Below, piece after piece: positions 877-5,861 of a DNA stretch of 24,423 nucleotides. Under the pieces are notes generated by a model. The model was given only the letters and a program-made list of their open reading frames with translations, did not search any database and had not been told where the DNA came from. Origin of the DNA: a virus (taxonomy: Duplodnaviria > Heunggongvirae > Uroviricota > Caudoviricetes). A program made the position numbers and the translations under genes. The stretch's first letter is position 1. Every line of letters begins with the position of its first letter. The DNA is taken from positions 1 through 24,423 of the IMG/VR virus record IMGVR_UViG_2681813316_000024; one strand, given 5' to 3'.

Positions 877-1233
877 ATGGCTAGACCGGCCAGTCGAAAA
901 GCAGTATCGTCACTGCCTGCCATAGCGAACATAGACGAGCAACTAGACGAGGTTGTTATGGAAAAAATCTCTGGAAGAGAACTGCATTTTCTCAATCGAA
1001 TTCTTCAATTTAAGCAGGAGAGAATTGCTGATTCTGACGTACAGGATGATGAGATTCTCATGGTTGACTCATTGGTCCGTCATGGATATCTTGCTGTTGG
1101 CTTTTTCGACCGTGATAATAACGGCGGATATCATAGCTTAATGCAATACTACTCTCTTACCGAACTTGGCGTTGCAGCTCATAAAGATGAATGGAAATGG
1201 AGAGGGAATCCAAATTCAAATAAAGGTCGCTAA
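877..1233 (+). CDS. Hypothetical protein (moron ORF between PR'/tR' and holin); alternative start at 958 has a better RBS (GAGG)
   Basis: 118-aa ORF; occupies the Q-to-S position where lambdoid phages carry cargo genes; own terminator overlaps its stop; no recognisable motif. Confidence 0.5.
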   Translation: MARPASRKAVSSLPAIANIDEQLDEVVMEKISGRELHFLNRILQFKQERIADSDVQDDEILMVDSLVRHGYLAVGFFDRDNNGGYHSLMQYYSLTELGVAAHKDEWKWRGNPNSNKGR

Positions 1234-1246
1234 GGCGGCCTTTTTA
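1225..1246 (+). terminator. Intrinsic terminator overlapping the moron stop codon
   Basis: Stem GGTCGC (1225-1230) / GCGGCC (1235-1240) with one G-U pair, loop TAAG, then TTTTTATT. Confidence 0.45.
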
Positions 1247-3133: not shown

Positions 3134-3514
3134 ATGAACGACCAGCAAATCGAAAAAGAAATCGTTGAGAAAGGCAAAACCGCTCCGAGAATCACTCCGC
3201 AGCACATCGAAGACGTGATTAAAAGCGAGCATTACTTTACTGCTTATGATGGACGTAATGGTGCCATTTCCAGCAACGAATATTGTGGCAGGGAAAAACC
3301 AGAAGAAGGCGATCGTGATTTATCACCATTGAAGTTGCTCACTTTCTGCGTACTGGTGCTGAAGAATGGCTTCACCGTCACCGGAGAGAGTGCCTGTGCA
3401 AGCCCGGAAAACTTTGATGCAGAAATTGGTCGGAAGATTGCCCGGCAAAATGCTGTAAACAAAATCTGGATGCTCGAAGGTTACTTGCTGAAGCAGAAGC
3501 TAAGCGAACAGTAG
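3134..3514 (+). CDS. Hypothetical phage protein (between lysis cassette and terminase)
   Basis: 126-aa ORF, same orientation as late operon; contains hydrophobic segment LLTFCVLVLKNGF; no catalytic motif recognised. Confidence 0.55.
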   Translation: MNDQQIEKEIVEKGKTAPRITPQHIEDVIKSEHYFTAYDGRNGAISSNEYCGREKPEEGDRDLSPLKLLTFCVLVLKNGFTVTGESACASPENFDAEIGRKIARQNAVNKIWMLEGYLLKQKLSEQ

Positions 3515-4384: not shown

Positions 4385-5861
4385 TAACCTGAGCGACGAA
4401 GAGCAAATCGAATTGCTCGAGCTACTCGAAGAAGAAGAGAACTACCGGAACACACACCTGCTATATGAATTTACGCCATACAGCAAACAGCGTGAGTTCA
4501 TCGACGCCGGGCATGACTATCCAGAGCGATGTTTTATGGCTGGTAACCAGCTTGGTAAGTCATTTACTGGTGCTGCTGAAGTCGCGTTTCACCTTACAGG
4601 GCGTTATCCGGGAACAAAAGGCTATCCGGATGATGGTAAATATGGCGGGGAGTGGAAAGGTAAGCGTTTCTATGAGCCTGTTGTCTTCTGGATTGGCGGC
4701 GAGACAAACGAGACGGTAACCAAAACGACTCAACGCATCCTGTGCGGTCGTATCGAAGAGAATGACGAGCCAGGCTACGGTTCCATACCGAAAGAAGACA
4801 TCATTAGCTGGAAGAAGTCTCCTTTCTTTCCGAACCTTGTTGATCACCTTCTGGTTAAGCATCACACGGCTGATGGCGTTGAAGATGGCATTTCAATCTG
4901 CTACTTCAAACCATACTCGCAAGGCCGTGCTCGCTGGCAGGGTGACACAATCCACGGCGTGTGGTTTGACGAAGAGCCACCATACAGCATTTATGGCGAA
5001 GGTCTTACCCGTACCAACAAATACGGGCAATTCTCAATCCTGACGTTTACCCCGCTGATGGGGATGTCTGACGTTGTTACCAAGTTCCTGAAGAATCCCA
5101 GCAAGTCGCAGAAAGTGGTCAACATGACCATCTATGACGCTGAGCACTACACCGACGAGCAGAAAGAGCAAATCATCGCATCCTATCCTGAGCATGAGAG
5201 AGAGGCGCGTGCTCGCGGTATTCCTACGATGGGTAGCGGACGAATCTTCCAGATACCGGAAGAGACGATTAAGTGTCAGCCGTTCGAGTGTCCTGATCAC
5301 TTCTACGTAATTGGCGGGATGGATTTCGGATGGGATCACCCACAGGCGCAGGTTCAGCTTTGGTGGGATAAGGACGCAGACACAATCTACGTTTCACGCG
5401 TGTGGAAGGCGAAAGAAAAAACAGCCGTTCAGGCATGGGGAGCCGTTAAATCATGGGCGCATAAAGTGCCAACAGCATGGCCTCATGACGGAAACCAGCA
5501 TGAGAAGGGCGGTGGTGAGCAGCTCAAAGGGCAGTATGCAGACGCTGGATTTATGATGTTGCAGGAGCATGCGACATGGCCTGATGGCGGTAATGCTGTT
5601 GAGCCTGGCATCACTGAATTGCGAGACATGATGCTCGATGGCCGCTTCAAAGTATTCAACACCTGTGAGCCATTCTTTGAGGAGTTCCGCCTCTATCACC
5701 GTGATGAAAACGGGAAGATCGTCAAGCTTAACGACGACGTTCTCTCAGCCGTTCGCTATGCATACATGATGCGCCGCTTCGCCAAAATGATGCGCGACAT
5801 CAAAAAACCAAAAGAGAAAAAGATACCAGCCCCAATCAGGCCCATCGCACGGAGAACTTAA
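4362..5861 (+). CDS. Terminase large subunit (P22 gp2-like, headful packaging)
   Basis: 499-aa ORF, same length as recalled for P22 gp2; position between small terminase and portal; stop TAA directly abuts portal ATG. Confidence 0.9.

Follow-up and report, generated by a model that had tools for sequence, protein, structure and literature searches.

An int-alpA leader RNA with a loop complementary to the ribosome-binding site in a likely portable cargo cassette between the phage genes Q and S

Morons are extra genes that carry many of the fitness, virulence and anti-defence functions of phages, and a classical moron has its own promoter. Those of the lambdoid phages HK97 and HK022 were reportedly described by Juhala, Hendrix and colleagues in 2000. 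To our knowledge, little is understood of how morons are silenced or dosed, or of the way in which they pass from one phage to an unrelated one. Two kinds of regulatory leader are of interest for comparison: the C4 antisense RNA of phages P1 and P7, which is encoded in the leader of immI (c4-icd-ant), and the Shine-Dalgarno-sequestering pseudoknots exemplified by the SAM-II and preQ1-II riboswitches and by PK-repZ of IncI plasmids. The present analysis concerns a stretch of 24,423 nucleotides (nt) from a virus of the class Caudoviricetes (IMG/VR record IMGVR_UViG_2681813316_000024, positions 1 to 24,423; hereafter the window). Between its late antiterminator gene Q and its holin gene S lies a 600-bp segment (653-1252, + strand) that holds a small gene preceded by an RNA of the Rfam family int-alpA (RF02996) and followed by an intrinsic terminator. 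This segment is likely to be a promoter-less cargo cassette with built-in translational control, in which a loop of the leader would pair with the ribosome-binding site (RBS) of the cargo gene.

RF02996 owes its name to a location between integrase and alpA genes, and Rfam types it as a small RNA (sRNA) of unknown function (Weinberg et al. 2017, PMC5737381). IsrK of Gifsy-1, a second RNA with which the leader can be compared, exists as a short and a read-through isoform, and the short isoform alters translation of the long one (PMC4825925). The literature searched contained no functional study of int-alpA/RF02996. The window copy matches the full length of the model (1-71) at 874-940 on the + strand, with 43.7 bits (gathering score 35.8), and all related leader copies tested also exceed the RF02996 threshold. 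It is the sole Rfam family in the whole window; other families gave only sub-threshold noise in 500-1540, and neither tRNA nor tmRNA was detected in the window or in ten related loci with tRNA-like 3' ends. The window copy has the same three stems and junction bases as the family, forming a three-way junction (874-926, + strand) with P1 at 874-881/919-926, P2 at 884-886/893-895 and P3 at 901-905/912-916, joined by the strands UA, GAAAA and CU. Three helices around the junction CUAG / CGAAAAGC / CCUG are recovered in the consensus alignment, in the minimum free energy (MFE) fold and by covariation. The genomic context departs from the family name: the copy is not placed between integrase and alpA but in the Q-to-S interval, directly 5' of a cargo open reading frame (ORF) in the late operon, and related copies occupy late-operon slots. 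The name is no guide to context here, since the int/alpA region of CP4-57 in K-12 itself contains no int-alpA copy. Only five GenBank phage records have a recognisable leader copy, none of them from a classical model phage, which may explain why the leader has been little studied. A hammerhead ribozyme, with its three helices and GAAA junction, was rejected as an identity, as the strands are unlike CUGANGA/GAAA/NUH and Rfam reports no ribozyme here.

By these comparisons, positions 874-957 read as an 84-nt structured leader whose junction is a member of RF02996. The P3 loop differs from the Rfam consensus and complements the downstream RBS. This loop, L (AUCGUC, 906-911), is complementary to GACGA in two copies of UAGACGAG, termed S1 (932-939) and S2 (944-951), all on the + strand, with predicted duplex energies of -7.8 kcal/mol for L:S1 and -7.1 kcal/mol for L:S2. 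S2 is borne in the loop (AGACGA) of a further hairpin, P4 (938-957, paired 938-944/951-957, -6.1 kcal/mol), which is followed immediately by AUG 958 and has the Shine-Dalgarno sequence GAGG (949-952) within it. The MFE fold of 870-975 yields P1, P2 and P3 together with P4 ending at the AUG.

Where the P3 loop varies among related loci, the two downstream sites vary along with it. In locus L122 the loop UUGCCUA faces the sites UAGGCAG and GAGGCAAG, and in L140 the loop CAUCCGCA faces UGCGGAG and GCGGAGG. The loop UCCUCUG of L147 is matched by CAGAGGAG and AGAGGAGG, and the loop UUCAUAUUC of L152 by GAAUAUGA, which occurs twice, the second copy lying over the AUG. For 48 distinct loops, both sites reached at least 5 nt in 67% of own pairings versus 5.7% of cross pairings. 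In a set of 69 distinct loops, a perfect complement of at least 5 nt ending -8 to +15 nt of the start codon was present in 75%, as compared with 14% on average, and 25% at most, over 200 permutations of the loops. A complement within 25 nt after P1 was found for 88% of the 69 loops versus 13% of permuted loops. Of the 31 representatives with two distinct sites, 25 have the second one in a hairpin loop, the hairpin ending directly 5' of the start codon. Complementarity of the P3 loop to two sites, the second of which overlaps the RBS, is thus well supported by comparative analysis. Pairing of the loop with the RBS would presumably control translation, and the ON state and the action in cis or in trans are inferred.

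The layout is similar to that of C4 and IsrK, in which loops of a leader RNA are complementary to repeated sites, one of them at a downstream RBS; in the window this holds for L and the two copies of UAGACGAG. The window leader differs in having one antisense loop rather than two and in having both targets downstream, and the C4 and isrK covariance models gave no match in 500-1540 at E values up to 10. With the SAM-II, preQ1-II and PK-repZ elements it shares a loop that would pair with a 3' tail at or next to the Shine-Dalgarno sequence just 5' of the start codon. It differs from these in the additional target copy S1, a putative decoy, and in that the genes presumably controlled by its family are mutually unrelated. 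What is new is thus the cassette with a loop-to-RBS leader, whereas its known kinds are the moron and the leader-encoded antisense or Shine-Dalgarno-sequestering element.

The spread of the motif was assessed with a looser pattern (CTAG-N8-12-CGAAAAGC-N12-20-GCCTG) applied to two collections, and the figures derived from it hold among the matches listed. A filter requiring at least four pairs in P1, three in P2 and four in P3, which a random match would pass in an estimated rough 4 of 10,000 cases, was passed by 157 of 222 matches, mainly from viral contigs, and by 27 of 120 genome matches. The latter derive from Burkholderia, Pseudomonas, Acinetobacter, Bradyrhizobium, Massilia, Nitrosospira, Planctomycetes, Acidobacteria, Nitrospirae and others. 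In copies from outside the enterics, the motif is followed by larger genes (median 219 amino acids, aa), among them those for HNH nucleases, integrases, DUF1376, Rha, the AntA antirepressor and Dam; int-alpA there precedes antirepressor (AntA) and Rha genes, a likeness to the immI operon of C4 (c4-icd-ant). An RNAalifold consensus of 56 diverse cores contains 15 pairs, 11 of which show compensatory double changes, including outer P1 pairs that lie outside the filter, so that covariation of the helices P1-P3 is shown at the level of the alignment. One locus, L137 (7815-9278 and 4576-4645), contains two tandem int-alpA cassettes with different P3 loops; three tRNAs lie upstream, one of which ends 4 nt before P1 of the first cassette, and a type II hammerhead ribozyme is found on the opposite strand.

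Several observations weigh against a control by loop-RBS pairing or lessen the evidence for it. For a quarter of the loop variants, a perfect 5-nt site is missing at the RBS. Many P3 loops resemble anti-Shine-Dalgarno sequences, and part of the complementarity between loop and RBS is therefore compositional, as the background of 14% indicates. In a wobble test for strand specificity, in which G-U was compared with A-C, A-C "extensions" were frequent in the permuted controls also. The window leader taken alone is no more stable than its shuffles (z -0.79). In the diverse set, the search pattern fixed the junction bases and the filter selected the inner pairs, so that the counts for the innermost pairs are partly circular. 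Because the pattern imposes the junction bases, their conservation was judged from the Rfam seed consensus only, in which CUAG, CGAAAAGC and GCCUG stand in upper case as conserved.

The leader is not tied to one gene. A leader-derived pattern retrieved 115 IMG/VR loci, in which the leader is followed by 117 complete ORFs of 53-165 aa that fall into 31 clusters without detectable mutual similarity. The same terminator (GGTCGC-N4-GCGGCC-Tn, or more loosely GGYYGC-N3-6-GCGGCY-Tn) comes after the ORF in 105 of 118 cassettes, in most of them no more than 25 nt from the stop codon. In the window this is the intrinsic terminator AAAGGUCGC-UAAG-GCGGCCUUU with a U-run at 1222-1246 on the + strand (-13.4 kcal/mol, z -3.15; none of 200 shuffles folds as well), which has no second copy in the window. 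The last codons, K-G-R, form its 5' arm, and the stop codon falls in its loop. The few Pfam matches of the cluster representatives were DUF551, DUF7336, a phage zinc-binding domain and an RNA polymerase alpha-CTD-like domain, and all PHROGs matches were to "unknown function". The cargo of L033 and L083 (165 aa) has an RNA_pol_A_CTD-like helix-hairpin-helix (Pfam E 3.8e-07), which is unusual in a phage accessory gene. In a protein search the peptide MARPASRKAVSSLPAIANIDEQLDEVVM was found to precede many unrelated proteins, identical or with one change; it is therefore best read as the conserved non-coding leader, mistranslated by gene callers.

Comparison of single loci with the window shows a sharp mosaic. 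In L014, L051 and L057 the leader is 98-99% identical to that of the window, the pre-leader 84-91% and the terminator with the following 100 nt 93-94%, whereas the cargo is at noise level (53-58%). The reverse applies to L001 and L002, in which the cargo is 86-87% and the leader 79-82% identical and both the pre-leader and the terminator with 100 nt are unrelated. By these identities leader and cargo assort independently, with joints at the ATG and the terminator. Accordingly, leader and terminator are apparently portable ends around unrelated cargo that is exchanged, apparently via recombination. The pre-leader segment (803-873, + strand) is 89-95% identical in L014, L039, L051, L057, L104 and L111, which have other cargo, and shows no significant fold and no promoter match. 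Cassettes occupy the interval from Q to the lysis genes in about 29 of 121 loci and the position directly after R/Rz in about 35 of 121; further slots lie before a small terminase or HNH gene, between the portal gene and that of a DUF2213 protein, a slot also read as portal to scaffold, and after a Mu-F-like gene. This assignment by marker genes covers about half of the 121 loci, and the other 57 fit no slot with these markers. A conserved pair of leader and terminator was not found described for morons in the literature searched.

The limits of the insertion were read directly from the window and HK022 sequences. At the insertion point HK022 reads ...GGGCTTTTTGCGTTTTAAGCAC followed by GGCCTTTCTGAAAGC, and the joints in the window read ...TTTTAAGCAC followed by AACGGAAAG on the left and ...GGCGGCCTTTTTATTGCAC followed by GACATTTCTGAAAGC on the right, with a T-run and GCAC at both. 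Compared with HK022-type phages, positions 653-1252 are thus read as an insertion of 600 bp just 3' of the terminator tR' in an HK022/HK97-like late region. A megablast search with 500-1540 against 50,697 phage records gave matches in 175, each covering at most 44% of the query, and HK544, HK542, HK022 and HK97 align to both flanks only. A sensitive blastn search with 640-1380 matched only in the part 1242-1380. The entire insertion is rare: among 5426 complete E. coli genomes, four have it at an identity of at least 99.5% and two others at 90%. The first-pass annotation had described an ORF with a hairpin/T-run terminator between the late promoter and the holin gene, and both were found, at 877-1233 and 1222-1246. 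Its proposal of an extra gene in the Q-to-S cargo site also held: the gene, which is followed by an intrinsic terminator of its own, is missing from HK022, HK97, HK544 and similar phages. Homology to the S leader had been placed as restarting near 1370, a position that has to be corrected, as insertion-free relatives such as HK022 match again from 1253. In a prophage of E. coli OkiPb01684 (L347), IS3-family insertions (1-813 and 4462-5675) flank an otherwise identical segment; one of them truncates Rz, and this copy is therefore probably defective.

Like a moron, the cassette contributes an extra gene that close relatives lack, placed between two conserved late genes and closed off by an intrinsic terminator. 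It differs in that no own promoter was detected in the window copy and in that the structured leader and the terminator are common to 31 unrelated genes. On the + strand of 653-957 no sigma-70-like site was found, although the search was a consensus scan only, from which a weak or atypical promoter could escape. The name moron given in the first-pass annotation is therefore apt for an extra gene between genes adjacent in relatives and for its own terminator, but not for an own promoter; the ORF itself fits the known kind of a moron-like extra gene, apparently without a promoter of its own. Among 79 distinct upstream contexts, 44 have a hexamer with at most one mismatch from TATAAT ending 8-16 nt before the junction, whereas a control window 30 nt further upstream has such a hexamer in 1 of 79. 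The hexamers belong mostly to leaders with a GGG-type P2 (41 of 55) and are found in 3 of 24 leaders of the window subtype (GAC/GAT-type P2), which directly follow tR' or a pre-leader. Since no own promoter was found in the window copy, Q-dependent expression from the late promoter pR' is the best inference, and the Q-dependent late expression that had been predicted is reasonable to that extent.

The following course of events is proposed. Polymerase modified by Q would start at pR' and read through tR', the cassette and the terminator at 1222-1246 into S-R-Rz, so that the cargo protein would be made late. On this transcript a loop-loop kiss of L and S2 with P4 would hide the RBS and block 30S binding, whereas the L:S1 pseudoknot would leave the RBS free. 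The leader would thereby set the yield of cargo protein per given amount of transcript. Action in cis is favoured for the window, as both a U-run and a promoter are missing at P1 in its subtype.

This leads to the question whether the leader could instead act in trans. The junction (about 55 nt) would then be made as, or processed into, a small RNA, set free by termination or processing. Its P3 loop would act on S1 and S2 in read-through transcripts of the same or of sister cassettes, either repressing them as an antisense RNA or activating them in the manner of IsrK. Rfam types int-alpA as an sRNA, and many copies start at a -10 hexamer. Within 9 nt after P1, at least five U residues are found in 27 of the 69 loop variants, as would be expected of a terminator, and the Rfam consensus has a U-run too. 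In L137 the tRNA, which stops 4 nt short of P1, would leave a processed 5' end, and the different loops of its tandem cassettes are as expected if cross-talk must be avoided. Both IsrK of Gifsy-1 and C4 of P1/P7 are precedents. However, a U-run after P1 is missing from the enteric and window-type copies, the window type lacks a promoter at P1, and pairing in cis is kinetically favoured, since the loop is no more than 35 nt away from S1 and S2. Action in trans is therefore unlikely for this locus, and the cis-acting leader is retained as the preferred reading.

The junction might also be a sensor, either a riboswitch-like aptamer or a binding site for a host or phage protein. Its occupancy would determine the partner of the P3 loop, S1 or the RBS, and the cargo would thereby be gated according to a signal from the cell or the infection. 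High conservation of the unpaired junction bases (CUAG, CGAAAAGC, GCCUG) in the independent Rfam seed consensus is consistent with such a role, as is the pseudoknot between loop and 3' tail including the Shine-Dalgarno sequence, which is the usual layout of translational riboswitches. The spread of the motif over many phyla and the presence of Rha, AntA antirepressors, integrases and HNH nucleases behind it, all of which need tight control, point the same way. Unlike the genes of classical riboswitches, those downstream of int-alpA have no common metabolic theme, and the junction conservation in the diverse set was imposed by the search pattern. We know of no ligand or protein for the int-alpA junction, and a sensor is regarded as quite unlikely. 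A broader proposal would make int-alpA a widespread translational switch that responds to a signal (ligand or protein) and gates accessory, antirepressor, integrase and nuclease genes of temperate phages in many bacterial phyla. Together with the terminator it would form a universal plug-and-play moron cassette, and the 91-aa protein would be one payload released only under a particular cell or infection state; in this full extent the proposal appears unlikely.

Finally, the leader could be non-regulatory and serve as a conserved boundary, that is, as a 5' stabiliser or processing site and a patch of homology for recombination of cargo. Leader and terminator are 96-99% identical around unrelated cargo, the recombination joints fall at the ATG and the terminator, and a T-run with GCAC stands at both insertion junctions; a stable 5' stem, moreover, commonly protects bacterial mRNAs. 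A pure homology patch explains neither the compensatory changes in P1-P3 of very divergent copies nor why the P3 loop varies together with two downstream sites at the RBS. As the whole explanation it is thus very unlikely, but as an additional role it is compatible with translational control by the leader.

The cargo gene was assigned to 958-1233 on the + strand. The frame is open from 877 (877-1233, 118 aa), and an in-frame internal ATG at 958 gives 91 aa. Orthologues of 91 aa are found in prophages of Yersinia proxima, Sodalis ligni, Serratia and E. coli, and the family has nine members among the leader-linked ORFs. An exhaustive phmmer search of 1.84 billion representative proteins added only two distant full-length relatives, of 67% and 45% identity. 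The ratio of non-synonymous to synonymous substitution (dN/dS) over the orthologues is 0.07-0.20 at a proportion of synonymous differences (pS) of 0.34-0.46. For the window it is 0.07 against L001 of Yersinia and 0.14 against L002 of Sodalis, with 41-45% divergence at synonymous and 5-8% at non-synonymous sites. By this measure 958-1233 is a real gene under purifying selection. The chance ORF that the first-pass annotation had considered, should both homologues in other phages and expression be wanting, is contradicted by these homologues and by the dN/dS values.

As to the start codon, the 27-codon extension (877-957) has in-frame stops in the three relatives L001, L042 and L107 and coincides with the structured RNA. 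The true start is accordingly read as ATG 958, with a product of 91 and not 118 aa, and GAGG stands 5 nt 5' of this ATG. The longer reading that had been allowed earlier is thus replaced, since its first 81 nt are part of the conserved leader. The Prokaryotic Genome Annotation Pipeline (PGAP) annotates a 91-aa coding sequence in strain OkiPb01684. That the frame arose by chance, or that the real product is the 118-aa form from 877, as the missing Pfam, PHROGs and PADLOC matches, the 118-aa form annotated by PGAP in HL15 and a 118-aa entry in Serratia would allow, is extremely improbable in view of the dN/dS values, the conserved family length of 91 aa, the stops in the extension, the position of GAGG and the near identity of the 27-residue extension (26-27 of 27) before unrelated proteins, which points to conservation of an RNA and not of a domain.

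The surroundings of two orthologues were also inspected. In the Yersinia proxima prophage (L001, 8320-9007) a gene for an AcrIF11-like ADP-ribosyltransferase and a 64-aa ORF lie on the opposite strand between the 91-aa orthologue and the holin gene, so that the Q-to-S slot of L001 carries further cargo. In the Sodalis ligni prophage (L002) the 91-aa gene is located upstream of HNH and terminase genes and not in the Q-to-S interval. The same prophage contains an Acb2/Tad1-like gene (898-1224) of the anti-CBASS/anti-Thoeris sponge family.

The first-pass annotation did not recognise the cargo protein, and it likewise escaped assignment to a family here: Pfam at E values up to 1, PHROGs and PADLOC gave no match, nor did PDB sequence profiles at E below 0.6. 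AlphaFold2 with an alignment of seven sequences yielded a model of moderate quality (predicted local distance difference test 71.9, predicted template modelling score 0.61). It consists of a helix (6-17), a short turn, a second helix (30-41), a beta hairpin (45-53/59-67) and a third helix (69-83). The model supports a small winged-helix fold, MarR/PadR-like, with a C-terminal helix, and the protein is probably a dimeric DNA binder; weighing against this are the seven close sequences on which the model is built, its moderate confidence and the missing family match. The predicted structure has the winged helix-turn-helix (wHTH) fold of MarR/PadR-type regulators, but the Pfam profiles MarR and PadR are not matched, and the protein is much shorter than MarR (91 versus about 140 aa). 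Together with the MarR/PadR winged-helix proteins, the closest known kind of protein includes F93 of Sulfolobus turreted icosahedral virus (STIV), a small viral wHTH protein.

The flanks of the cassette are those of a lambdoid late region, and the features from Q to Rz are on the + strand. The C-terminal 168 codons of Q (1-507; Pfam Antiterm, E 2.5e-49) are cut at the window start. The ATG at position 1 is only an apparent start internal to Q, as the complete protein is annotated with 207 aa in an identical E. coli prophage. Next come a pR'-like late promoter found by consensus scan (TTGACT-17-TAAATT, 550-578) with a qut region, homologous to sequence that bears a promoter/qut annotation in HK544, HK542 and the mEp phages, and the intrinsic terminator tR' (610-646, with the hairpin at 610-637 and a U-run; -14.8 kcal/mol, z -2.76), which is conserved in HK022. 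Downstream of the insertion, the HK022-like S leader (1253-1536), with which homology restarts, is followed by the lysis cassette with the holin gene S as its first gene (1537-1860; Phage_holin_3_1, E 2.4e-30), R (1844-2320) and Rz (2317-2754). A 126-aa ORF (3134-3514) follows Rz after a gap of about 380 nt; L005 has an ORF of the same length, with a Pfam match to Phage_gp49_66, downstream of its lysis genes. The slot after Rz is occupied by int-alpA cassettes in many relatives, and none is present there in the window.

At its left end the insertion contains a long hairpin (652-745, + strand; -31 kcal/mol, z -2.6), which is a diverged copy of a recurrent element. The basal stem of this element (ACAGGTAAGAGCA / TGCTCTTTCCGTTGTG) is conserved, and its top, 55-70 nt long, is hypervariable. 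Related copies were found in 12 loci (L005, L013, L026, L034, L039, L040, L057, L067, L076, L103, L104 and L111). The element always lies directly after an intrinsic terminator, either tR' or that of a cassette, and shows compensatory changes in two basal pairs; it is not in Rfam. An integron attC site was considered for this hairpin and rejected by inspection, with no formal attC model search, as the ends CACAAC...GTTGTGG are unlike RYYYAAC/GTTRRRY. No integrase is adjacent to it within the window.

The comparison gives an orphan Rfam motif a concrete candidate role, in which its loop would pair with the RBS of whichever gene follows. The leader of the cassette suggests a mode by which add-on genes of phages may be controlled and exchanged; as exchangeable ends, the motif and one terminator frame no fewer than 31 unrelated small genes, and they do so in several slots of the late operon. 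The protein of the window would be a rare putative DNA binder, presumably made late, for which effects on the host or on competing phages are conceivable. Leader and terminator together offer a sequence handle for cargo genes in prophages and are a candidate for a portable expression module.

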